From a phage: DNA of 64,000 bases. The translations under genes and the position numbers were made by a program. Position 1 is the first letter of the stretch; each line of letters starts with the position of its first letter. Location: NCBI GenBank assembly GCA_012441205.1, contig GCA_012441205.1_4705.1. One strand, 5' to 3'. Under the pieces are notes generated by a model, which saw nothing but the letters and a program-made list of their open reading frames with translations, ran no database searches and had not been told where the DNA came from. Positions 5,223-58,308 of the stretch are shown here, in pieces.

Positions 5223-5333
5223 TGCATTGCCTTCCGCGAGTGTAATCAGGAAGGTAATGTAGGTTTATTTTAATCTCCATTTCGCGATGATATGACAGTC
5301 TTTATTACGTTTACCATCTGAGGGAGCATGCTC

Positions 5334-19555: not shown

Positions 19556-19568
19556 GGTAATATAGACC
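19556..19568 (-). promoter_or_regulatory. putative phage promoter motif (GGTCTATATTACC on minus strand)
   Basis: Plus-strand GGTAATATAGACC; near-identical copies at 44242-44254 and 57368-57378, each 30-125 nt upstream of a minus-strand gene start. Confidence 0.4.
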
Positions 19569-24841: not shown

Positions 24842-27800
24842 TTATTTGGCGTCGTTAAAATAAATATCAACAGCTCGTTCCGTTGCGTAGAGGAGACCAA
24901 GATTCACAGTCCCAACCACTTCCGGTGAACCGATGATACGGTTAGCGATACTGGTGCCACTGAAGATAGCATCAAGGGTGTGCCCGTCTTCGGTTTTGTT
25001 CACACCATGACCCACGGAAGAGACAACGGATTTCGCTTGAGCTGCGAAGGTACCTTTATCGCCCATCCCCGCACCAAGGTCGTAACGCATGAAAATACGG
25101 ATTGCGATCTGGTTCTCGCCTAACGGATTACCGTCTATTCTCACGTTACTGTTATTGATACGCCCCGTAGTTGCTTCGTTGAGTTTCAGTTCCTTAACGC
25201 GTTTAGCTCGCGCTTTATCTGCATCACCGACGAGCGCCGCCATGGTTTCACTCATATCCTCAATCTGAGCGCGGTACAGCACATCGATCTGTACAACTTC
25301 ACCATGAACGTCAGCACGTGGGTTATACTGACTCATACGACGTAATGCTTCAACGGCTTCCTGACTCTCATCACTCAGATCGGTCGCAATCGGTTCTTCC
25401 AGTGTTGCAAGGATCGTTCGTGGTTCAACATGATCGCCGATTTTCACGAGACCACGAATGTTGAGATGGGCGTCAACGATGAGCGTACGGCTCTTAATCG
25501 ATGGTGTTACGAGACGATCGGCAAGATTGTCGAAGATATACGAACTGTCCTCGTGAGTCTCTGGAATATCCAGAATACCGACAAGAGACAGAACACCTGC
25601 GCGCCAAACAACCTGACCTGGGTTCCACCAATCGCGTTTAAAATAAAGACGATGGAAGACCACCACATCCTGATCCTTAACGCGATCCCCGACTTTATAA
25701 TCGGTAATGAGATCGTGAGGATAATACTTACCTGGTCCTTTCCCGATTATCGTACCGAGCTGGAAAACCTCTTCCCCTAACTCTGGATCGTCGTATTGTA
25801 TCGTCAGCGCAGTTTTGGTGACCTTCTTAACAACACCGTCACCTTGGGCGGCAGCTGCAAAGAGTTTACCAACACGATGCGCGATGACAGTCTCACCGCC
25901 GGTGCGCCACGGTTGTACATCGTAACCCTCAGCGGCAATCATGCGGTTGTGTTGGATCCCGACGAAGACCAGACGTTTTCCATCATCACGGTCTACAGCC
26001 GGAACAGCTAACGCTGACGTACTCATTACCGATGAGATGCCGTCTGTCTTTTCATCGAATGGTCGTGTTTCACCATACACCGACACGATATTAGCATTAG
26101 GTGCAAGGTAAGCAGAGATACCCACATCCCCACTATCTTTCGTACCCTCTGACACAATACCAACATCGGACTTGTCGTATTCACGATCACGTGCGCGTCG
26201 AAGCGATGTCTTTGAACGACCCCCGATACCGGTCATCGTTGCTTCTTCACCCTGCTTGATATCCAGCATCGGGTTGGTTTCATCGATCACGATGGACGCG
26301 CTGTCGTCGAGAATTTGGTTCCAGACACTTACCGGACTGATTGAGATTTTCTGGCGGTTTCCTTGACTGCTGTTCTCATTCTGACGAATAGCGCCAACCA
26401 GATCCTTATACACCAATTCAGCGAACTTATCGTACGTTTTAAAACGTTGGTAGTTCACATCGTTCGTGTTAGGTGCCCAATCATCCAGAAGCAGTTCAAC
26501 AGCACGCAGTAACAACATGGCGAAATCGGTAGGTTCTCCCATGTTCTGTAGCAACGTACGGCTTACCGGATCAACGAAAAGACGCTCCATGAGTTCAAGT
26601 TCGCGTAAATGGCGAACCTTAAGTCCGGCACCATCGACAACGTTAAAATAGATATCTCGATTGTCGAAAGCACCGCGAGCGTAACCGATGTAGTTACGGT
26701 ACTCGTTAAATCCGCCCAGCAACAACGTCGTCATGCGATCGTCTTTACTGAAGATCAAACTTTCGTCATCAAAGCTCACCGCGAATTCATCGGGTGCTAG
26801 ACCCATACGAGAACCGCGAGGTACCGTACGATAGTTCGCTTTAAGATGTTCTAATAACGGGGTAAGTCCACCCAGATAACTTAGAACAACACCAACCGGA
26901 ATACGTACACCCATGAATTCAAGATCGGCGGCTTCGATCGGCATCTTAGCCGCATTGATACCGAAGAAATCAGGGAACGTCCCTACAGGTGTTGGTGTTT
27001 GTCCTGACTGACAGATATAGAGCTGATTGCGTTTATCGATTGCTAAGAATTCACCCAGCGTGTTACGCGCAAACGTCAGGAGCCCTTCGGCTAACTGTTC
27101 GTTGAACCGATCTTCCCCGATGAACTCCGGTAGCGTTTTTATATCGAGACGTATATCCCAATCAGCAAATTGGATTTGGGTATAGTTGCGTGCAAGCACA
27201 GCGAAGTAATACGGGACTTTGACGGCCGGATCAAAGACGTTACCACGTTTTAACGTGGTTAAGGGTGAGGACTTATCGTAATACATCGCTGTAAGTTGGC
27301 GTGTTAACCAACGACCGGCGTTATTAACGACACGCTCTGAACGTTTAACAAACACCTTACCGTAGGCGGTACTCAACGCAACTTCGGATGATGATACCTT
27401 TCTAATAGGTTTATCAACACGTTGTTTACGCATCCGGTATTTGATGCCGTTAACGACATAAATGCCGTCCTTACGAACCTTCGGCAACATCACCGGGAAC
27501 GTGGTTGGGACACCGCCTACAGGGGCCAGTTTAATCGTGATGACTTGATAATCCCCCATCACGTCAACAACATCTTCAACTTTATATCCCGTGACAGGGT
27601 AACCTGCCTGTTGTACGGCAACAACAGCGGCTGCGATGTCCTTTTGCATCACGTGTTCAACGTAATGTTTATCCCACACCGCAAGCGTCGATTTACATAG
27701 GCTCTTATCGACGATAACATCCGCTTCCGGCATAACCTTTGCTGGCGCTAATTTCGCGGCTTTTGGTTTAACTTCAACATACTCAGCAAGTGTTAATCCA

Positions 27801-29188
27801 GAACCGTCGGGTGCTTCGATTTCATGGATGGCGTCAGCATTACGCATCGCTGCTTTATATTGGACGCCGCTTAACTGACCCGCATCAGCCAGATCGCTCG
27901 CGCGTACCAACACCGCATCCGATAACGACTGAATATATTCACCGTGCGTTTTTGGTAACGTTGCCGCGTCAAAGACATCAACCTTTTCTTCTTCGGTATC
28001 GTCGGTAACGACTTCGAAGAGATCGTCGGTAATGTCCTGATCTTCATCAGGTTGAAAATCCGGCTGTACTTCTACCCCGGGTACTTCACGGACATCTTCG
28101 AACGAGCGTTCTACAATGGCGTTCCACGCATCAGCGTCATCGTCTTCATCCGACCCACCAACCAACTCCGCTTCTAACTCATCGGAATCAAGAACAGTGG
28201 CCAGATCCTCACCGTTAGGAAGCACGACGTCGCGATCATCGTACTCTGCATCCGGGCTGTCCGCAAGAATATCTCGCTCTTGACGAAGAACCTGTTCCTC
28301 TTCTTGTTTCTGTTCTTCTTCATTCGCGCTCTGCGACCATAGACGTGTTACCGCCATCATCCAACGACGCTGGAAGGTTTCGAGTGTCGTTTTATCGAGT
28401 TCTTCCCCTTCCTTTACAAGCCCGGTACGCCATTCTTCCAACAGGCCGAGATTCAGCGTAAAGAAGTACACACCGTCTGTAAATACAACGTTAAGCTTAT
28501 CCAGCGTGGCTCTGTCTAACGAAGCCATTGTGCTGTTCTCACGATCGGTTCCCAACCAGCGGAAGAAGTCAAAGAACGACAGCTCCTCCGGCGTGGCGAA
28601 ATTCATGAGGTTGTTACGGGTCGGTGCCTGTTGCGTGGTACGCATCAACGAAATCTTCGGCAATGTTGACGGTATACGGAACAACAAAAAGTGTTGGCGA
28701 TCGCTTTGCTGCGCGATTTCGTTGGCTTTCGACCAAATTGTTTTACGTACGTTGAACCATTCATCATACCAACGGGTGAGCGTTGGACGATAGATGTACA
28801 TGTGGTTAAGATGTGCGTAGTTAGCAACGATCTGAGCGTTGATGTTTTTCTCCACCGTACTTAGATCGGTAACCAAACGAAAACGACGATGTGACGCACG
28901 ATAATCCAATTTCGCTCGTGGGAGCTGGAATCGCTGATCACGTCGAGGTGCACCCTGTTTGGTTGCGAGATCATCAGCAAACGAAATCCATAGTTGAGCA
29001 CTTTCTTTACTCAACATGTATTCGTTTTCTGGAGGACCTATCAATGAAGGATCCGTTGCGGTGTAATGATAGACAGCATAACGTGGCAGCTGCAATAGCT
29101 GCACTAAACGTAATCTCGGTGACAATAGCTCTTGGTATCGTCTGACGCCAAACTGTCGGTAGTAATCAAGGTATTTAAGTTTTGCCAT
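24842..29188 (-). CDS. multisubunit RNA polymerase beta-like subunit (divergent)
   Basis: 1448 aa. GIGGRSK...DVGIVSEGTKDSGDVGI parallels the bacterial beta region GPGGLTRER...GRVCPIETPEGPNIGL, and GMGDKGTFAAQAKS...DAIFSGTSIANRIIG parallels GDKMAGRHGNKGVIS...DIVLNPLGVPSRMNIGQ (E. coli beta recalled from memory). Contains a long acidic insertion. GGAG RBS 8 nt before the ATG at 29188. Confidence 0.65.
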   Translation of the reverse strand: MAKLKYLDYYRQFGVRRYQELLSPRLRLVQLLQLPRYAVYHYTATDPSLIGPPENEYMLSKESAQLWISFADDLATKQGAPRRDQRFQLPRAKLDYRASHRRFRLVTDLSTVEKNINAQIVANYAHLNHMYIYRPTLTRWYDEWFNVRKTIWSKANEIAQQSDRQHFLLFRIPSTLPKISLMRTTQQAPTRNNLMNFATPEELSFFDFFRWLGTDRENSTMASLDRATLDKLNVVFTDGVYFFTLNLGLLEEWRTGLVKEGEELDKTTLETFQRRWMMAVTRLWSQSANEEEQKQEEEQVLRQERDILADSPDAEYDDRDVVLPNGEDLATVLDSDELEAELVGGSDEDDDADAWNAIVERSFEDVREVPGVEVQPDFQPDEDQDITDDLFEVVTDDTEEEKVDVFDAATLPKTHGEYIQSLSDAVLVRASDLADAGQLSGVQYKAAMRNADAIHEIEAPDGSGLTLAEYVEVKPKAAKLAPAKVMPEADVIVDKSLCKSTLAVWDKHYVEHVMQKDIAAAVVAVQQAGYPVTGYKVEDVVDVMGDYQVITIKLAPVGGVPTTFPVMLPKVRKDGIYVVNGIKYRMRKQRVDKPIRKVSSSEVALSTAYGKVFVKRSERVVNNAGRWLTRQLTAMYYDKSSPLTTLKRGNVFDPAVKVPYYFAVLARNYTQIQFADWDIRLDIKTLPEFIGEDRFNEQLAEGLLTFARNTLGEFLAIDKRNQLYICQSGQTPTPVGTFPDFFGINAAKMPIEAADLEFMGVRIPVGVVLSYLGGLTPLLEHLKANYRTVPRGSRMGLAPDEFAVSFDDESLIFSKDDRMTTLLLGGFNEYRNYIGYARGAFDNRDIYFNVVDGAGLKVRHLRELELMERLFVDPVSRTLLQNMGEPTDFAMLLLRAVELLLDDWAPNTNDVNYQRFKTYDKFAELVYKDLVGAIRQNENSSQGNRQKISISPVSVWNQILDDSASIVIDETNPMLDIKQGEEATMTGIGGRSKTSLRRARDREYDKSDVGIVSEGTKDSGDVGISAYLAPNANIVSVYGETRPFDEKTDGISSVMSTSALAVPAVDRDDGKRLVFVGIQHNRMIAAEGYDVQPWRTGGETVIAHRVGKLFAAAAQGDGVVKKVTKTALTIQYDDPELGEEVFQLGTIIGKGPGKYYPHDLITDYKVGDRVKDQDVVVFHRLYFKRDWWNPGQVVWRAGVLSLVGILDIPETHEDSSYIFDNLADRLVTPSIKSRTLIVDAHLNIRGLVKIGDHVEPRTILATLEEPIATDLSDESQEAVEALRRMSQYNPRADVHGEVVQIDVLYRAQIEDMSETMAALVGDADKARAKRVKELKLNEATTGRINNSNVRIDGNPLGENQIAIRIFMRYDLGAGMGDKGTFAAQAKSVVSSVGHGVNKTEDGHTLDAIFSGTSIANRIIGSPEVVGTVNLGLLYATERAVDIYFNDAK

Positions 29189-29380: not shown

Positions 29381-29450
29381 CGCCTCAGGTCGCTACGCTG
29401 AGACCGCCTGCATGGATACGTACATCACAGGCTGCTTGCACTTTCATGCA

Positions 29451-29756
29451 AGAGGAGACTATATCAAACCGGCAGCACAACCTGCTACGGTAACCTACAC
29501 TTCGAAGACGCTCGTCCTCTACAGGGTGGTAAATCCCTTAGTCGTTGAACCTGCGTTGTTTCCCATTCTTGCAAACAAGAATGCCGTATTGCTACGCAAC
29601 AACCAGGCTGCTGATTGCCCATTGTTTCGCACCTTAGCACCGCTTACGCGGCTTTTCTTTCAGCCTAAGCCTCTTACGGAGTTAGTGCATCTCAACTGTT
29701 GTTTCTGCCTTTCGGCACCTCATGGGTCGTTGAGCTTTAGGGGTTCCCAGCAATTC
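29451..29756 (-). ncRNA. group I intron catalytic core (P3-P9 region)
   Basis: P, Q, R and S elements as above; GNRA-loop hairpins flank the core (CCCGAAAGGG near 29775-29790 and CTTGCATGAAAGTGCAAG near 29435-29452). Confidence 0.7.
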
Positions 29757-29805
29757 GTAGGTTTTTCAAGCACTCCCTTTCGGGAATACCGGACTCATTA
29801 TTAGC

Positions 29806-31278
29806 TTATTTATTCAAGTATCTGAAATCCCACTTATCTTTACGTCGTTTATCGCACTTAATGTCAGGATGATTAACACGATGCCTAATAGTTGTTGCCG
29901 ATAGCTGGCTGAGATTCTCAGCAGATCGTGCGCCAAGAACAACGAGTTTTGTGTCGTCTGGACGCGTAACTTCTACTGCCCGATAATGCTTACGTAACAC
30001 ATCACGCCAATATTCACGACGTTCTGGTTCAGCATACTCAAGCATGTAACCGTTAACATCTACTAAACCGTAGCTTTCGTTTAATCGAGAGGTAGCGGCT
30101 GGTTTACTAATACCGATTGCTTTAGCCGCATCGACCACGGTTTTATACGGGGTCTCATTACCGTCTCTATCTACAACCACAATGAAATCTGGACGTGAAT
30201 CGAGTAGCTGCTGTCTGCGTTCGACGGCTTGTTGATGAAGCACCATGTTAACGTGTTCGAACCCGTAACCTTCTGGGCCACGCCATCCTGGATTGTTGTT
30301 CGCTCGATAAAGTATCGTCGATGATTTCACTCCAGTCTGACGCGATGCCTCGTTTGCGCTATGAACAACCGTGGTAGAGCCATCAGGATGATATATCCGT
30401 ATCTGGTTCATTATACCGGAACCAATGAAGTTACCATCGGCTGATTTAATGTCCGGCCATGGTTGCGGGTCATCTTTGAATTTAACCACCCAGCGGTTGT
30501 TAAACAGCTTAACTTTTCGAACATGTTTGCCTAATGTCGTATCCGTAACACCTGCGACCACTGACGCTTGTGTAATGCTCAGGTACTCAGTAACGGTATC
30601 GTTCCAAGTATCCCAGAGCAGAACCGGTTTATTGTCGTCACGTAAACCATGTTCGATAGCATGCAGGACATTACGACTTCTGGTTGCCCATTCCAGATTG
30701 TCAAGAGAATAGTTCCACTTATCAGCATCAAGATGATTAACGTCCATCTTATCGACATTAGCCGGATATTCCCGCCACGCCAACATCAAGCAGCGATGTA
30801 AAACCTTAGTTCTCGTTGTATCTCGACAATCGTGACGTAGACTAATGAATACGTAGTTATCCTTTTTCGGATACGATCTGCATTCCTGTCCATCCTTGCG
30901 GGAGATAACTCGCCCTTTCTCATTTATCAGATAACGAGTATGTCCAGGAATAACACGATAACCAGGGTACTTAGCGATCTCATAAGCAGGCTCGAAACGA
31001 TAGGATAAGTTATCAACATCCCAATTAGATTCGTCGCCGTCAACAAACATCGCTTTGACGTACTTCTGTGTTTCAATATCAACCAGGATGTTTTTGTGTG
31101 CGATACAAATCAATGCTGGGATATTGAATTCGCGACCAGCTAAAGTAACAGTGTCGCCGTTTCTCGGTATCGCGACGTGGGTATCACGATACCGTAAGTT
31201 TCCATAGCCGTCTATTTCAATCCAGCTCAGAAACGGAATAGATATAAATTCTTTTTCAGATACTCGCCATTTAAACAT
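29806..31278 (-). CDS. HNH homing endonuclease (intron-encoded)
   Basis: 490 aa; HNH motif VNHLDADKWNYSLDNLEWATRSRNVLHA and an N-terminal NUMOD4-like segment YPGYRVIPGHTRYLINEKGRVIS; own ATG at 31278 with AGGTG RBS; located in the 5' peripheral region of the intron. Confidence 0.8.
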   Translation of the reverse strand: MFKWRVSEKEFISIPFLSWIEIDGYGNLRYRDTHVAIPRNGDTVTLAGREFNIPALICIAHKNILVDIETQKYVKAMFVDGDESNWDVDNLSYRFEPAYEIAKYPGYRVIPGHTRYLINEKGRVISRKDGQECRSYPKKDNYVFISLRHDCRDTTRTKVLHRCLMLAWREYPANVDKMDVNHLDADKWNYSLDNLEWATRSRNVLHAIEHGLRDDNKPVLLWDTWNDTVTEYLSITQASVVAGVTDTTLGKHVRKVKLFNNRWVVKFKDDPQPWPDIKSADGNFIGSGIMNQIRIYHPDGSTTVVHSANEASRQTGVKSSTILYRANNNPGWRGPEGYGFEHVNMVLHQQAVERRQQLLDSRPDFIVVVDRDGNETPYKTVVDAAKAIGISKPAATSRLNESYGLVDVNGYMLEYAEPERREYWRDVLRKHYRAVEVTRPDDTKLVVLGARSAENLSQLSATTIRHRVNHPDIKCDKRRKDKWDFRYLNK

Positions 31279-44241: not shown

Positions 44242-44254
44242 AGGTAATATAGTC
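44242..44254 (-). promoter_or_regulatory. putative phage promoter motif (GGACTATATTACC on minus strand)
   Basis: Plus-strand GGTAATATAGTCC in a divergent intergenic region; same motif as at 19556 and 57368. Confidence 0.4.
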
Positions 44255-54169: not shown

Positions 54170-54796
54170 ATGGCTGTAACACGCATGACGCCAAGTCCCG
54201 GTGCGGTCGGGGTATTCACAGTATCAGCGCCGTTTACCGTTGGTGCGTCAACGCTATATACCGTTACAGCGTTGCGAAGATTCAGCGAAGTCATCGGTAG
54301 TGGAATCGATCTATTTACGGAACTGTACGAACCGTTATCAATAGACAAATCCACATTCGAAGCGCATCTCGAAGCGAATGCTTATCTCGTCACGTTGCAA
54401 CCGGATTACGGTGCACCCGTACTGGTACCTGATACGTATATCACGTCGTACCCAAAGAACGATTCATTGCGGTATCGTCGCATTATTCTGGGTATCGATT
54501 TCGGGCCTCTTCCTCCCGGTCTTGACCTTTCGTATTTAACAACGATATTGAAAGGTAAGGCCAGTGATATTCTTGGTGTCGAACCTGAAGTTAAAACGAT
54601 GGAAATCACTCTCGATGATACCGTTACTCAGGAACAACATCAGATAAACGAAGCCCGTCGTCAGGCCGCGATAAAAGAGCGAGATACCATATACGCACGT
54701 TGTGAAACGCAAGAGAAGCAGATAACGGCTTTACTTGCAACCCAAAAGCAACTTATCAAATTGCTTCAAGACGCCGGTATCAATCCGACACCTTAA
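54170..54796 (+). CDS. hypothetical protein (208 aa)
   Basis: ATG at 54170 with GGAGG 8 nt upstream (ORF track starts at a TTG at 54164); translationally coupled to the upstream gene. Confidence 0.5.
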   Translation: MAVTRMTPSPGAVGVFTVSAPFTVGASTLYTVTALRRFSEVIGSGIDLFTELYEPLSIDKSTFEAHLEANAYLVTLQPDYGAPVLVPDTYITSYPKNDSLRYRRIILGIDFGPLPPGLDLSYLTTILKGKASDILGVEPEVKTMEITLDDTVTQEQHQINEARRQAAIKERDTIYARCETQEKQITALLATQKQLIKLLQDAGINPTP

Positions 54797-54802
54797 CATA
54801 TT

Positions 54803-54834
54803 CCCTCCTCCTTCCCTGTTGGGTTGGAGGAGGG
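54803..54834. terminator. hairpin terminator (conserved family)
   Basis: CCCTCCTCC-TTCCCTGTTGGGTT-GGAGGAGGG followed by TTATGCTGTC. Confidence 0.55.
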
Positions 54835-54848
54835 TTATGCTGTCAAGC

Positions 54849-54864
54849 AAAAAAAAAAAAAAAA
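54849..54864. repeat. 16-nt poly(A)/poly(T) homopolymer tract
   Basis: A16 on the plus strand between two hairpins in a convergent intergenic region; reads as T16 downstream of the minus-strand gene ending at 54910. Confidence 0.8.
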
Positions 54865-54875
54865 TGATAGTCACA

Positions 54876-54897
54876 GGCTCTCCAATGAAGGAGAGCC
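54876..54897 (-). terminator. hairpin after minus-strand gene 54910..55611
   Basis: GGCTCTCC-AATGAA-GGAGAGCC; on the minus strand it is followed about 11 nt later by the T16 tract. Confidence 0.45.
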
Positions 54898-54909
54898 GTG
54901 ACCGTCAGT

Positions 54910-55611
54910 TTAAGATGCAGATAATCTCGCGTACTTCTGGCGAACATGGTTCTTACGGCGAACTTCGTCGTCCTCGTCGCGCCATTCGAGGTAAGCAACG
55001 AATCGACGTAACTGCGCCGCCGTCATCGTTGACGAGCGGTCTTCTACGTCTAGAACAACGTAACGAACATCACCAACGCCATCGCAATCAACGTAACTGA
55101 ATACCAAAAGGCCATCGCCGTACTCAACGATGGTAACTTCGAATCGTTTATCGAACAAATAAAACAGTTCCGATTCAATGATCATCGGAATGACGCATAA
55201 ATCAGCACGATTGAGGATTTCCATCATCACCCGTAACGCGCGAGGAGTATGGCGAGCGAACTGGTCGTTAAAACGTTGTTTCATCGCTTGTTCCACGCCA
55301 TCTGTTTTTGTTCCAAACCACGGACGTACTACAGATTTCGGTGGTGTAAGACGAAAGCGATATGCTTGTATAAACAACAGAATATCAGCGACGTTAGGAA
55401 ATTCTTCCTGGTCTTCGTATATCTTGCGGATAATATCCGGAATCGTAACCATCAAGTATTTCTTATCGCCTCCCACTTTCTCGAGATTAGCAATATGTCC
55501 TTCTACCACAGGCTGGTAAACGAAATTATACCAATGACGGTATCTTTCAGTACGTTGGTAGTTTGGGATAAAATTAAGAATAATACTCACTGCGCGTTTT
55601 AATGGGTTCAT
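54910..55611 (-). CDS. hypothetical protein (233 aa)
   Basis: ATG at 55611 with AGAAGGA RBS; last gene of a four-gene minus-strand operon. Confidence 0.5.
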   Translation of the reverse strand: MNPLKRAVSIILNFIPNYQRTERYRHWYNFVYQPVVEGHIANLEKVGGDKKYLMVTIPDIIRKIYEDQEEFPNVADILLFIQAYRFRLTPPKSVVRPWFGTKTDGVEQAMKQRFNDQFARHTPRALRVMMEILNRADLCVIPMIIESELFYLFDKRFEVTIVEYGDGLLVFSYVDCDGVGDVRYVVLDVEDRSSTMTAAQLRRFVAYLEWRDEDDEVRRKNHVRQKYARLSAS

Positions 55612-55625
55612 CGGAAGGATCCTTC

Positions 55626-56039
55626 TTATGTTTTAATATGCACATCGTCAATCCCCTCGGTAATCCAGCCGATGGGAAGGACAATCGTTGTTATCCTGTT
55701 ATGGGTGTAGTGGTTGAGAAAATGGAAATAGTAATTTTTGTTAGACTGTTCGATCCGCAGGTCGAGATGCGCGTCTTCAGGTAACCGTAACCAAGCACCG
55801 TACAGTTCATTAAACTTACGCTGAATTTTACCGGGGTTCATTGGAACCCCACGACCACGACGATGTAGCTGACGTAATGATTCAATCAAACACTCAGAGA
55901 TACCCGTTGTCGTTCCGTTATCGCTTGTATCAATAACGATGAACTCTCGTGACCCACGACCGAGATAAAAGCCAGCGACAAAAGCTGCAGCAACAAAAAT
56001 TATCGTACCGATACCAATATACCAATAGTAAGTATCCAT
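55626..56039 (-). CDS. hypothetical membrane protein (N-terminal transmembrane anchor)
   Basis: ATG at 56039 (MDTYYWYIGIGTIIFVAAAFVAGFYLG...) with GTGAGGT RBS; 137 aa. Confidence 0.45.
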   Translation of the reverse strand: MDTYYWYIGIGTIIFVAAAFVAGFYLGRGSREFIVIDTSDNGTTTGISECLIESLRQLHRRGRGVPMNPGKIQRKFNELYGAWLRLPEDAHLDLRIEQSNKNYYFHFLNHYTHNRITTIVLPIGWITEGIDDVHIKT

Positions 56040-56050
56040 AACGACCTCAC

Positions 56051-56578
56051 TTATACCCAATAGTCGGCAAGCGGTTTTACCTTATTAATGGGCAACTGTA
56101 CTTTACCGATGTTCTCTACATCCGCATCAGCGTAGAGAACAATTTTATCACCGTCTCTTTCCCAACGAATAATGAATCGACCAGGAAGAAGATTACTCTG
56201 TTCAAGAGACGCAGTAACCTGTTGTGTTAAAACAGACAACCAAGCAGGCATCAGTGTTGCAACATCTAAGTCATTTGACCATTCAGCGCGTTGCTCCACT
56301 GGACGTAACATACGTTCGACGGTGCGTTGAACTGTTGCGGTGATATAGCCTTTATCTTCGTCACTGATTGGATCAGGACGAGACACAAAACGTTCAGCAG
56401 GCTTGTGGGTAATATATTCATGCAAATCGATGAGTGGTGTTGTCATAGTACTCGCTCCATCAGAATGTAATTGGGTAACCCGTAGGGTTGTCTGCATGCT
56501 ATTCAGCAGCGCAAAAGCGCCATAAACAACAACGATACCAAGTATAGCCAAAACAGAAATCATTAACGTGTATTGCAT
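56051..56578 (-). CDS. hypothetical membrane protein (N-terminal transmembrane anchor)
   Basis: ATG at 56578 (MQYTLMISVLAILGIVVVYGAFALL...) with GGGGAG 6 nt upstream; 175 aa. Confidence 0.45.
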   Translation of the reverse strand: MQYTLMISVLAILGIVVVYGAFALLNSMQTTLRVTQLHSDGASTMTTPLIDLHEYITHKPAERFVSRPDPISDEDKGYITATVQRTVERMLRPVEQRAEWSNDLDVATLMPAWLSVLTQQVTASLEQSNLLPGRFIIRWERDGDKIVLYADADVENIGKVQLPINKVKPLADYWV

Positions 56579-56679
56579 TGTCATCTCCCCTACATACGCA
56601 TCTTGAAGATCGGTTAAAAACAACAAAAGAAAAAACGATATAAAGCAAGGTCCTCTGATATCAGAGGACCTTGGATCAA

Positions 56680-57336
56680 TTAGCTTGCAGCTTCTTCATT
56701 TGTATCAGGTTTGCTTCCCCCTAACAAACCGTCAAACAGACCCGTATGTTTCAGGTAGAAGAGAGCGATAGCGCCCATTGCTGCTGCGCTCGTCGCCGTT
56801 AACGCAACCCCGGCACGATACTGCCATTTACGGTCAGGCTTTTGATCAAGAGCCATACGACGCATGTATTCAGCCTCTGCTTCATTCCGATGAATTTCGG
56901 ATTCAGCCAAGCGGGCTAAGGTATCGCGGTCAAGGTTATCATAACGTACGTTCATGGTGGTTTCCTCTTGTTTGGAAGTTGATTGCTTAGTGGATTCTTG
57001 GTCAACAGTCGTTTCAGATGGTTCAAACGGCTGGTTGTTCATTTTCTGATCTTTATTGGTCATGATAGACTCCTTCGATTTTTGAGACGAAATTGATTTA
57101 AACCATCGTGGATGGCGGTATTCAGTTTTACATGTGCAGTTAAGTTTCTCGTGCAGGAAAGCGTAAAAACGTTTTGCGCCTACACGTAAGGCTTTCAGCA
57201 TTACCCATCCACGAGCACTCAAACGGTGTAGCTGTTGCGGTATGTCGAGTTTCCTAGCCAAGCGAAAGTATCTTTCAATCACTTCGATAGGAAACCATTG
57301 TTGTTCCACATCGGTGAGACTGAAAGTCTTATCCAT
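56680..57336 (-). CDS. hypothetical protein with C-terminal transmembrane segment; alternative internal start at 57063
   Basis: 218-aa ORF from the ATG at 57336 (weak RBS, about 30 nt after the promoter motif). The in-frame ATG at 57063 has a strong GGAG RBS 7 nt upstream and would give a 127-aa tail-anchored protein (C-terminal ALTATSAAAMGAIALFYL). Confidence 0.45.
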   Translation of the reverse strand: MDKTFSLTDVEQQWFPIEVIERYFRLARKLDIPQQLHRLSARGWVMLKALRVGAKRFYAFLHEKLNCTCKTEYRHPRWFKSISSQKSKESIMTNKDQKMNNQPFEPSETTVDQESTKQSTSKQEETTMNVRYDNLDRDTLARLAESEIHRNEAEAEYMRRMALDQKPDRKWQYRAGVALTATSAAAMGAIALFYLKHTGLFDGLLGGSKPDTNEEAAS

Positions 57337-57367
57337 GATTGAAATCTCGCTGGCTTACTTCACTTAA

Positions 57368-57378
57368 GTAATATAGCC
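57368..57378 (-). promoter_or_regulatory. putative phage promoter motif (GGCTATATTAC on minus strand)
   Basis: Plus-strand GTAATATAGCC, about 30 nt upstream of the ATG at 57336. Confidence 0.4.
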
Positions 57379-57486
57379 GTGAAAAATGTTGGATTAAGTT
57401 AAATACCGCAACCGCAGCTAATTTTATAGGCTTTTAGCCTAAACCAATCATCTTCGGAATCATCATCTTTGAAACAGGAATCTATC

Positions 57487-58308
57487 ATGGAAAAAGTATT
57501 TGTTTGTAAGTTGTTTACCAACGGCAATAGCCAACCAATGTATCTGACCGATCCTGTTCTAGGTAATCGGAACAGTACCGTATTCAAAGAGGCTTTCGAA
57601 TACGCTAAAAATAAAGCCGTGAGAACACTGACGTCTGATGACTGTATCAACGGTATCACGTGGGCAGAGTTAATCGGTGATGCCGTTCGACACTTCGTTC
57701 GGGATGCGAGAAAACGGGAAATCTGTCTCACGACTATTGTTGTGCGTGAAAACGCAGAAATTTTATCAAACGTTTTGGTTGATTTTAATGACGTTTGTGT
57801 GTTTAATCCAGAGAACACGTTTGAACAATACCTTACTGCCCTGAACAACCAGCTCGGTAAAGATATTCATCCCGAATTCGCCAAGTTAACATATCAGTTA
57901 CTTTTTGACGACGTCGATCCAAATACGAAGATCGATACCAGCTTATCGCCCCTGGTAAAGAAATACGGATCGGTTCTCGCTACGGCAACACCCACCACCG
58001 ATGGTGGTTATGATATCGAATTGGATGATCCATTAAAAGAACAAGAGCCTACTGGGGTTAGGGCGGTACATCACAACCTCGTCGTTAAATCTGATGGATG
58101 CGATGAACATTACGCTATGATAAACGATGAAAACAATTACCGTTTAAGTCAAGCGATTGGTGTTCTACGCTATACCGAACCCACTGTTGTAGACGATTAT
58201 ACATCGACAACAACGCACACCACGTGTTTCATTTTCATCTATCCCAATGAAAGTGTGTACATTACCGACTGCTATGGCAATACCGTAGATAGCTTACGTC
58301 GTTATTGA
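57487..58308 (+). CDS. hypothetical protein (273 aa)
   Basis: ATG at 57487 (ORF-track start 57469 is a TTG); followed by a classic terminator. Confidence 0.5.
   Translation: MEKVFVCKLFTNGNSQPMYLTDPVLGNRNSTVFKEAFEYAKNKAVRTLTSDDCINGITWAELIGDAVRHFVRDARKREICLTTIVVRENAEILSNVLVDFNDVCVFNPENTFEQYLTALNNQLGKDIHPEFAKLTYQLLFDDVDPNTKIDTSLSPLVKKYGSVLATATPTTDGGYDIELDDPLKEQEPTGVRAVHHNLVVKSDGCDEHYAMINDENNYRLSQAIGVLRYTEPTVVDDYTSTTTHTTCFIFIYPNESVYITDCYGNTVDSLRRY

Follow-up and report, generated by a model that had tools for sequence, protein, structure and literature searches.

What does a jumbo phage gain from a compact row of four small genes, most of which encode membrane proteins without a named relative? 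The question is raised by a locus on the minus strand, at positions 54,910 to 57,378 of a 64,000-nucleotide stretch of phage DNA (contig GCA_012441205.1_4705.1 of GenBank assembly GCA_012441205.1), the whole of which is called the window here. A preliminary description of this locus had offered three answers: a lysis cassette with holin- or spanin-like proteins, a superinfection-exclusion module or a host-takeover module. Among these alternatives host takeover is preferred, and the four genes probably form an accessory operon, expressed early by nucleus-forming jumbo phages of the Goslar type, that serves host takeover or protection. This reading is favored because the cassette is early, lineage-specific and fast-evolving, and encodes small interaction-type domains.

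The source phage is a Goslar-like chimallivirus. Over the 2.9-kb region, its DNA shows 97% identity with the opening 2.8 kb of Escherichia phage vB_EcoM_Goslar, which belongs to the nucleus-forming jumbo phages of the Chimalliviridae; outside this region, the window corresponds to other sections of Goslar, among them the terminase, the tail sheath, RNA polymerase subunits and RNase H. The four open reading frames (ORFs) are real, with the coordinates and lengths first assigned to them, and are homologues of Goslar gp004, gp003, gp002 and gp001, each of which is annotated as “hypothetical protein”; a search for gp001–gp004 in the Goslar papers found nothing. Counted in amino acids (aa), they are:

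56680-57336, minus strand: ORF1, 218 aa, homologue of gp004
56051-56578, minus strand: ORF2, 175 aa from the ATG with the best Shine–Dalgarno (SD) spacing, homologue of gp003
55626-56039, minus strand: ORF3, 137 aa, homologue of gp002
54910-55611, minus strand: ORF4, 233 aa, homologue of gp001

The four genes had been called translationally coupled, which is wrong for the step from ORF1 to ORF2, where a gap of 101 nucleotides (nt) holds a terminator made of a 12-bp hairpin and a T-rich tail; ORF2/ORF3 and ORF3/ORF4, with gaps of 11 and 14 nt and an SD of their own for each gene, are close-packed only and do not overlap. The neighbours of the cluster are genes for a virion protein, a DUF7194 protein and a late 279-aa protein.

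The cassette has few relatives. A tblastn search with the four proteins against 50,697 GenBank phages (E <= 1) gave Goslar as the sole match, and none of 5,426 complete E. coli genomes contained the locus. When ORF1 was run exhaustively with HMMER against 1.84 billion representatives, seven proteins were returned, from Goslar-like contigs save for one doubtful match; the remote homologues are 26-31% identical, and P0011, P0012, P0014 and P0016-18 share the architecture of ORF1. The doubtful match, P0013 (139 aa, E 6e-4), was treated as spurious, since its similarity is confined to the helical part of ORF1 and it resembles a protein with a DnaA-C-like helix-turn-helix (HTH). A profile search then added a sister clade to the ORF1 family, represented by contigs of 100-220 kb, and a further lineage, L016. 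The sister clade (loci L017, L018, L020, L021 and L023) and L016 have the same cassette arrangement at a syntenic site, between an SbcC-like gene and a block of DUF7194, virion-protein and RNase H genes, with a conserved layout of promoter, ORF1-like gene, hairpin and T-run, conserved spacer, ORF2-like gene (173 aa) and ORF3-like gene (148 aa). Homologues of ORF2 in the sister clade are 26-29% identical. The fourth gene of that clade (173 aa) has no detectable homology to ORF4 (BLASTP E 4.4, hhalign probability 0.1%), and ORF4 was accordingly dropped from the conserved core, which consists of ORF1–ORF3, ORF4 being specific to the Goslar clade.

Between the clades the neighbouring RNase H protein is 59% identical, versus 26-31% for the cassette proteins. 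The cassette, which is outside the chimallivirus core genome, evolves much faster than the core genes, as accessory host-interaction genes usually do. Selection acts on every gene of it: in a comparison of the window with Goslar and four more genomes of its clade, two from IMG/VR and two from ENA (ORF2 82% identical in the latter two), synonymous codon changes dominated in ORF1–ORF4, pointing to purifying selection in all four.

Three side observations belong to this comparison. The divergence across 54700-57600 from the related loci L008 and L009 is a mosaic, with 18% for the DNA of ORF2, 1.5-6% for ORF1 and 4-8% for ORF4, and L009 differs from L008 in ORF1 and ORF4 but is like it in ORF2 and ORF3, a pattern suggestive of recombination among Goslar-like phages inside the cassette. 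Database entries for hypothetical proteins from assemblies of Salmonella enterica and Escherichia coli (P0003, P0028) include Goslar-like ORF2 and ORF3 sequences, which indicates that bacterial isolate assemblies contain Goslar-like phage contigs. In L016 (70-510), the most divergent of the loci, a gene for a protein with an immunity-protein-like SUKH_5/SUKH_6 domain lies upstream of the ORF1 homologue; this gene is followed by a hairpin and then the early promoter motif.

That the cassette is early is indicated by its promoter as well as by its transcripts. The motif reported upstream of ORF1, GGCTATATTAC, was located again on the minus strand at 57368-57378, and stands in a longer block:

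57360..57397, minus strand: putative early promoter block TTAATCCAACATTTTTCACGGCTATATTACTTAAGTGA, with the core TATATTAC at 57368-57375

The block is probably an early promoter of the type read by the virion RNA polymerase, with transcription presumably starting a few nt downstream, near a conserved GTGA. It is unchanged in six Goslar-clade genomes, the flanks of which vary. The whole 237-kb Goslar genome contains ten copies of TATATTAC, none on the plus strand; eight of them are intergenic, with a common consensus of approximately TCCAAC-N5-TTTCACGGC-TATATTAC-YTA-N2-TGA. Four more Goslar sites have TACATTAC in place of TATATTAC, which brings the extended-motif family to 12 sites, all on the minus strand and each just upstream of a minus-strand gene, including gp246, the gene for chimallin, which forms the nuclear shell. 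The core alone is present five times in the window versus two expected, an enrichment that is not significant, whereas the extended motif at ORF1 reaches a position weight matrix (PWM) score of 56 bits versus at most 7.2 in shuffled sequences. The extended-motif scan gave three further copies in the window:

19557-19564, minus strand: further motif copy
44244-44251, minus strand: further motif copy
5254-5261, minus strand: further motif copy

Of the three, two score high (PWM 48-49) and precede the homologues of Goslar gp214 and gp200; the other is a weaker TACATTAC variant. In the distant clades the promoter motif is found 39-66 nt upstream of the ATG of the ORF1 homologue. A scan of the region for sigma-70 promoters gave fewer sites than in shuffles, with none positioned for ORF1–ORF4. 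The early core of phiKZ is also TATATTAC; a literature search for this bare string found nothing.

Jumbo phages that encode RNA polymerases each carry a conserved AT-rich motif of their own, ~10 nt long, whose centre lies near -10 of the early genes (PMC7598289), and the Goslar motif pattern fits this published description. An early promoter is also known for gp054, the chimallin gene of phiKZ (PMC8244752). The early promoters of the phiKZ type (Ceyssens et al. 2014; PMC7598289; PMC8244752) likewise combine a conserved AT-rich core of ~10 nt (here TATATTAC or TACATTAC) with conserved flanks, are located just upstream of early genes, that of chimallin included, and drive genes that are expressed independently of the phage nucleus. 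Unlike in those promoters, the flanks here are specific to the Goslar lineage, with TCCAAC-N5-TTTCA-N3-C before the core and YTA-N2-TGA after it, and the start given above is a putative one.

Transcript data are available for Goslar from RNA sequencing (RNA-seq) of infected cells with chimallin (ChmA) knockdown versus control cells (Armbruster et al., Suppl. Table 2; bioRxiv 10.1101/2023.09.20.558163). The logic of the comparison is that chimallin knockdown arrests infection at the vesicle stage, when the virion polymerase alone is transcribing (bioRxiv 10.1101/2023.09.20.558163). The log2 ratios of knockdown to control were:

gp004: +1.2 to +1.3
gp003, gp002 and gp001: +0.2 to +0.6
gp005–gp013, on one flank: -2.8 to -7.6
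gp187–gp188, on the other flank: -6 to -9
motif-bearing gp021, gp040, gp047, gp075, gp105, gp159, gp175, gp182, gp214, gp246 and gp200: +0.5 to +1.3

The genes gp004–gp001 are an early, nucleus-independent island between late genes, with their own promoter and terminator. The earlier proposal of a transcription unit for small membrane proteins, placed behind a promoter of the CTATATTAC type, is supported. Two hairpins divide and close this unit:

56620..56673, minus strand: T1, hairpin (12 bp, 56646-56673) with T-rich tail, folding free energy (dG) -22.7, z -5.2
54850..54907, minus strand: T2, strong hairpin with a run of 15 T, dG -28.2, z -8.3

T1, in the gap that separates ORF1 from ORF2, probably acts as a leaky intrinsic terminator or attenuator. 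The Goslar record annotates a predicted terminator between gp004 and gp003, and all of the distant homologous loci have a hairpin of different sequence with a T-run at the same place. In the arrested state, Goslar gp004 has ~1187 reads per kb, and gp003, gp002 and gp001 have 441, 490 and 370, i.e., the reads fall to ~31-41% downstream of T1, which fits a leaky terminator; the mRNA of ORF2–ORF4 would arise by read-through. T2, which terminates the unit, is common to the convergent plus-strand genes and is kept in relatives with variation in its loop.

The spacer that follows the hairpin (56579-56645, minus strand) contains an element that is conserved in all clades (also L016 1490-1580 and L017 690-783), and that consists of TTTGAC or TTTAAC, ~15 nt, (A/G)TGTGAG or TATGTAG, and then AGGAG. 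It could be a second, perhaps middle-class, promoter or an element of the 5′ untranslated region. The relatively higher abundance of gp003–gp001 in control than in arrested cells would be in line with an additional promoter that depends on the nucleus. The idea of a late promoter of the TATG type ahead of ORF2 was dropped, as the element is present in the source phage and absent from Goslar itself.

ORF1, the first of the genes, poses a question of its own, namely whether it makes one protein or two. Its product begins with a helical N-terminal domain and a disordered polar linker, continues with a helix and a hydrophobic C-terminal segment rich in Gly and Ala, and ends in a short acidic tail. 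AlphaFold modelled it from a nine-sequence alignment, and the structure models in general rest on shallow alignments; in the ORF1 model the N-domain (aa 1-83) is confidently helical, with a predicted local distance difference test (pLDDT) score of 78-90, the linker (aa 84-135) scores below 50, a long helix occupies aa 137-164, and a further helix at aa 169-197 has a pLDDT below 50. Invariant residues cluster in the N-domain (LT..E..WF, R.S.RG..M, LH.KL, RWF). That this domain might be an excisionase- or MerR-like HTH, as had been suspected from the sequence, was supported neither by the models nor by fold searches. The features of ORF1 that matter for its products are the following, with the hydropathy given as the Kyte–Doolittle (KD) mean and TM standing for transmembrane:

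56752..56808, minus strand: C-terminal hydrophobic segment, aa 177-195, VALTATSAAAMGAIALFYL, KD 1.76
57061..57075, minus strand: candidate internal start 1, M92, with SD AAGGAG at 57070-57075, a 6-nt spacer and ATG at 57061-57063; 127-aa product
56953..56968, minus strand: candidate internal start 2, M128, with AGAGGAA, a spacer and ATG at 56953-56955; 91-aa product of helix and TM segment

The preliminary description had drawn attention to the in-frame internal ATG at 57063 and to its much stronger ribosome-binding site, and rightly so, the duplex with the anti-SD having -8.3 kcal/mol at M92 versus -3.6 kcal/mol at the first ATG. It had missed the second internal SD and ATG at M128, where GAGGAA-N7-ATG gives an SD duplex of -6.0 kcal/mol. 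The M92 pair of SD and ATG is invariant in the Goslar clade, and in the 76%-identical L022 both AAGGAG and ATG are retained while the two codons between them have changed non-synonymously, from S-I to L-T; in L016, AAGGAAgtaatcATG is found at the position aligned with the M92 site. The source phage has both sites and the sister clade only the M128 type, as (R)RGGAAAC-N5-ATG, in five of five loci, with varying codons in between (T-T, I-T, T-P, T-I). Taken over the three clades, an in-frame ATG is found within the poorly conserved linker, or where it ends, in all nine ORF1 loci, and each of the nine ATGs is preceded at SD spacing by an (A/G)AGGA(A/G) core with a duplex of -6.0 to -8.3 kcal/mol. 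Changing codons amid a constant SD core and ATG are the pattern expected of a functional internal ribosome-binding site, and ORF1 probably also yields, from this candidate start, a short form without the N-domain. Of the dual-start gene first proposed, the conserved internal SD and ATG thus stand, being kept in three clades down to 26-31% protein identity, and the use of the start is presumed.

The alternative is that the first ATG alone is used and that the internal SD-like strings just encode a conserved K/E-E-x-x-M peptide, a possibility that deserves to be taken seriously even though it appears somewhat doubtful. The N-terminal domain is the most conserved part of ORF1 and is clearly translated: codons 1-91 show synonymous to non-synonymous changes of 8/1 versus L008 and 5/0 versus Goslar, a pattern which means that the N-terminal extension is translated and the long form is a real coding sequence. 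Moreover, GAG, GAA and AAG codons make SD-like strings in any acidic linker, the first ATG of the sister clade has an equally good SD (-6.2), and the base rate is not negligible, as an in-frame SD and ATG with a dG of -8 or less is found at 0.9% of internal ATGs and in 11 of 215 Goslar genes, i.e., 5% have one of comparable strength. A strong internal SD and ATG alone is therefore unusual but not decisive. What speaks against a single product is that, within a disordered linker of otherwise low conservation, the site occupies one and the same domain boundary in three clades, that the SD core and ATG outlast the non-synonymous replacement of the codons between them in L022 and at the M128-type site, and that the first ATG of the Goslar clade has a weak SD (-3.6 and -2.7).

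With two products, ORF1 would resemble T7 gene 4A/4B, phiX174 A/A* and lambda S107/S105, in which an in-frame internal ATG with its own SD is likewise conserved among homologues. Unlike lambda S, where the difference is two residues, the putative short form of ORF1 would lose a whole domain (91-127 residues).

Both forms would end in the same hydrophobic segment, a probable though borderline tail anchor on the hydropathy of its sequence. The internal start would give the 127 aa of the tail-anchored protein that had been announced; the anchor itself is the less certain part of that claim, with a KD of 1.76 here, 1.82 in L016 and 1.0-1.1 in the sister clade. Four to five K/R residues flank the segment on its N-terminal side. 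In the sister-clade homologues (e.g., L018 8001-8684) the corresponding segment is a glycine-zipper-like GAGAIAGIGYAG with a KD of ~1.1 and basic residues on both sides, which may be an oligomerising or re-entrant membrane helix and not a classical tail anchor.

ORF2 and ORF3 are anchored at the other end, as had been claimed for both: each has a single N-terminal TM helix followed by a soluble domain. In ORF2 the helix comprises aa 7-25 (nt 56504-56560, KD 2.67), with conservative substitutions among relatives, and is followed by a soluble domain of ~145 aa; in ORF3 it comprises aa 8-26 (nt 55962-56018, KD 2.24) and is followed by an alpha/beta domain of ~105 aa, with residues 4-25 modelled by AlphaFold as a helix at a pLDDT below 50 for residues 1-30. 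ORF4 is soluble, without a TM segment (maximum KD 1.26). In each of the 12 homologues examined for ORF2 and ORF3, the side ahead of the TM helix is free of K/R residues, and one to three such residues come after it (one or two in all of the ORF2 members), which predicts an N-out/C-in topology for both proteins from hydropathy and charge. With the positive-inside rule, this distribution of charges would leave the bulk of ORF1, ORF2 and ORF3 in the cytoplasm. The N-terminal segments, ~19 residues long and devoid of a basic Sec n-region, would be anchors and not cleaved signals. Cysteines are far from the signal sequences (none in ORF2 of the source phage, C50 in an SECL motif of ORF3, C67 and C69 in ORF1), and no lipobox was seen in the four protein sequences. 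The idea that ORF2 and ORF3 are paralogues was dropped for lack of similarity, and a winged helix suspected in ORF3 from its sequence was unsupported by models or fold searches.

The topology predicted for ORF2 and ORF3 has a precedent in phi29 p16.7, an early membrane protein with an N-terminal TM segment, a coiled coil and a cytoplasmic DNA-binding domain. Early expression, the N-terminal anchor and a functional domain in the cytoplasm are common to both; unlike p16.7, to which there is no homology, the ORF3 model is alpha/beta, like dynein light chain or gp25, and not homeodomain-like helical, and the DNA of a chimallivirus is enclosed and not exposed to the cytoplasm.

These features bear directly on the lysis reading, in which ORF1 would provide a holin/antiholin pair from its two starts, and ORF2 and ORF3 would be controllers of envelope disruption similar to spanins or to the T4 holin T. 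Holin/spanin cassettes are likewise clusters of small proteins with single TM segments, the two in-frame starts recall lambda S105/S107, the hydrophobic segment of ORF1 is Gly/Ala-rich and glycine-zipper-like, and early transcription is compatible with lysis genes in Goslar, since the SleB-like hydrolase gp098 is also in the early class. Unlike such cassettes, however, ORF1–ORF4 form an early-class island without an adjoining endolysin gene or lipoprotein signal. A name search found no endolysin among the four proteins, and the annotated endolysins of Goslar, gp024 and gp098, are at 15 kb and 110 kb; without a lipobox Cys there is no o-spanin or u-spanin; and in every homologue of ORF2 and ORF3 the soluble domain is predicted to lie on the cytoplasmic side, the opposite of i-spanin, RI and the T4 holin T. 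The isoforms of ORF1 would differ by 91-127 residues instead of two or three, its conserved 83-aa domain, predicted to be cytoplasmic, is unlike holins, and the search for PHROG lysis families gave no match (best E 0.43). Transcription from the early vesicle stage is a weak argument against lysis because gp098–gp101 also belong to the early class. These last genes (Goslar NC_048170, 110508-112126, outside the window) in fact offer a more plausible lysis cluster: gp098 is the SleB-like hydrolase with a hydrophobic signal-like or signal-arrest-release-like N-terminus, gp100 has four TM-like segments, gp101 (63 aa) has two TM segments, and all three, which are early, together resemble a lysis cluster. 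A lysis cassette at the locus studied here is therefore unsupported, and very unlikely.

Superinfection exclusion, the second of the original alternatives, would mean that early membrane proteins alter the envelope such that later phages fail to deliver their DNA, in the manner of T4 Imm and Sp. T4 Imm, Sp and RI and the SPO1 host-takeover protein gp56 act on the host envelope or division machinery, and they are, like the proteins studied here, small, early, single-pass membrane proteins encoded in accessory clusters. That the cassette proteins are early, membrane-anchored, lineage-specific and fast-evolving relative to the neighbouring core protein fits exclusion, as does their ORFan status, which is typical of such genes. 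They differ from the T4 and SPO1 proteins in that ORF1–ORF3 have no sequence or fold similarity to them, form a set of three that is conserved as such, and have larger soluble domains (105-145 aa) that are predicted to be cytoplasmic, which misfits a periplasmic inhibitor of the Sp type. Searches of Pfam, PHROG and NCBIfam gave no similarity to Imm, Sp or known exclusion proteins. In addition, Goslar cells with several phage DNA objects have been quantified and called co-infections (Extended Data Fig. 3 legend), so that exclusion, if there is any, is not absolute. Exclusion is on these grounds an unlikely function.

A third rival assigns the proteins to the organelles of the infection itself: they would enter the membrane of the early vesicle, or anchor phage structures such as the nascent chimallin shell or PhuZ filaments to a membrane, and would then help to pass the genome on from the vesicle to the nucleus. 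Expression at the vesicle stage from the same promoter type as chimallin is in line with this, as are the predicted orientation of the soluble domains towards the cytoplasm and the C-terminal anchor of ORF1, which permits post-translational insertion into any accessible membrane; furthermore, the transport channels of the vesicle and the mechanism of genome transfer are described as unknown in a review (PMC12908238). Yet the cassette lacks a homologue in other GenBank phages (E <= 1), although the vesicle stage is conserved across the family, and fold searches with the models found no structural similarity to membrane-remodelling proteins. Such an organelle role is highly improbable. Its most specific form must be regarded as a long shot as well: ORF1–ORF3 would be a cytoplasm-facing membrane complex on the early infection vesicle and not in the bulk inner membrane, which would tether, mark or open the vesicle during genome hand-over or anchor the Goslar-specific PhuZ vortex, with ORF1 inserted post-translationally via its glycine-rich C-terminal segment and the ratio of long to short ORF1 timing the event.

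The preferred reading, an early accessory operon for host takeover or protection, suggests the following course of events. The virion-packaged phage RNA polymerase would initiate at the TTCACGGCTATATTAC-type promoter and transcribe ORF1 before the genome has left the early infection vesicle; the conserved hairpin terminator would let about a third to half of the transcripts pass into ORF2, ORF3 and ORF4, so that, with this partial termination, ORF1 would be made in excess. The ORF1 protein would consist of the cytoplasmic helical domain, the disordered linker, the helix and the C-terminal Gly/Ala-rich membrane segment, and the in-frame SD and ATG in or at the end of the linker would probably also give the short form of helix and TM segment. 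ORF2 and ORF3, presumably held by their uncleaved N-terminal TM helices with the soluble domains in the cytoplasm, would most likely assemble with ORF1 into a complex at the cytoplasmic face of the inner membrane, where the three would act early by interfering with a membrane-associated host process or defence, and not in lysis.

A number of points weigh against this reading. The RNA-seq data come from Goslar and not from the 97%-identical source phage, and are gene-level counts at 30 min without mapped 5′ ends; the early class moreover takes in 175 of the 249 Goslar genes, including the putative endolysin gp098, so that timing discriminates poorly. ORF2–ORF4 could have a separate promoter in the conserved spacer after the hairpin, and the conserved K/E-E-T-x-M peptide of ORF1 could be constrained at the protein level and not as an SD. 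TM segments were called from Kyte–Doolittle means over 19 residues and the topology from hydropathy and charge rules alone, and the hydrophobic segment of ORF1 is below the usual TM thresholds in the sister clade. The four proteins and their family alignments gave nothing below E 0.01 in Pfam, PHROG, NCBIfam and PADLOC except scattered single-member matches, and profile searches with the ORF2 and ORF3 families against PDB sequences gave no match.

Which newly made jumbo-phage proteins act on membranes at the vesicle stage is an open question in the field, and the cluster adds three concrete candidates that can be knocked down: early, membrane-anchored, predicted to face the cytoplasm, conserved as a set and placed under a chimallin-type promoter. 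If their function turns out to be an ordinary accessory one, in host takeover or exclusion, its interest would be routine. The locus also provides an explicit early-promoter consensus for Goslar-like phages that is useful in annotation and engineering, an example of an internal attenuator that would set the stoichiometry within an early unit, and a well-supported candidate for an internal translational start.

Elsewhere in the window, a group I catalytic intron was found at 29435-29821 on the minus strand (Rfam RF00028, 57.8 bits). It sits between an RNA-polymerase beta-like ORF of 1448 aa (24842-29188) and an ORF of 490 aa (29806-31278), and the same group I intron is annotated in the Goslar record.

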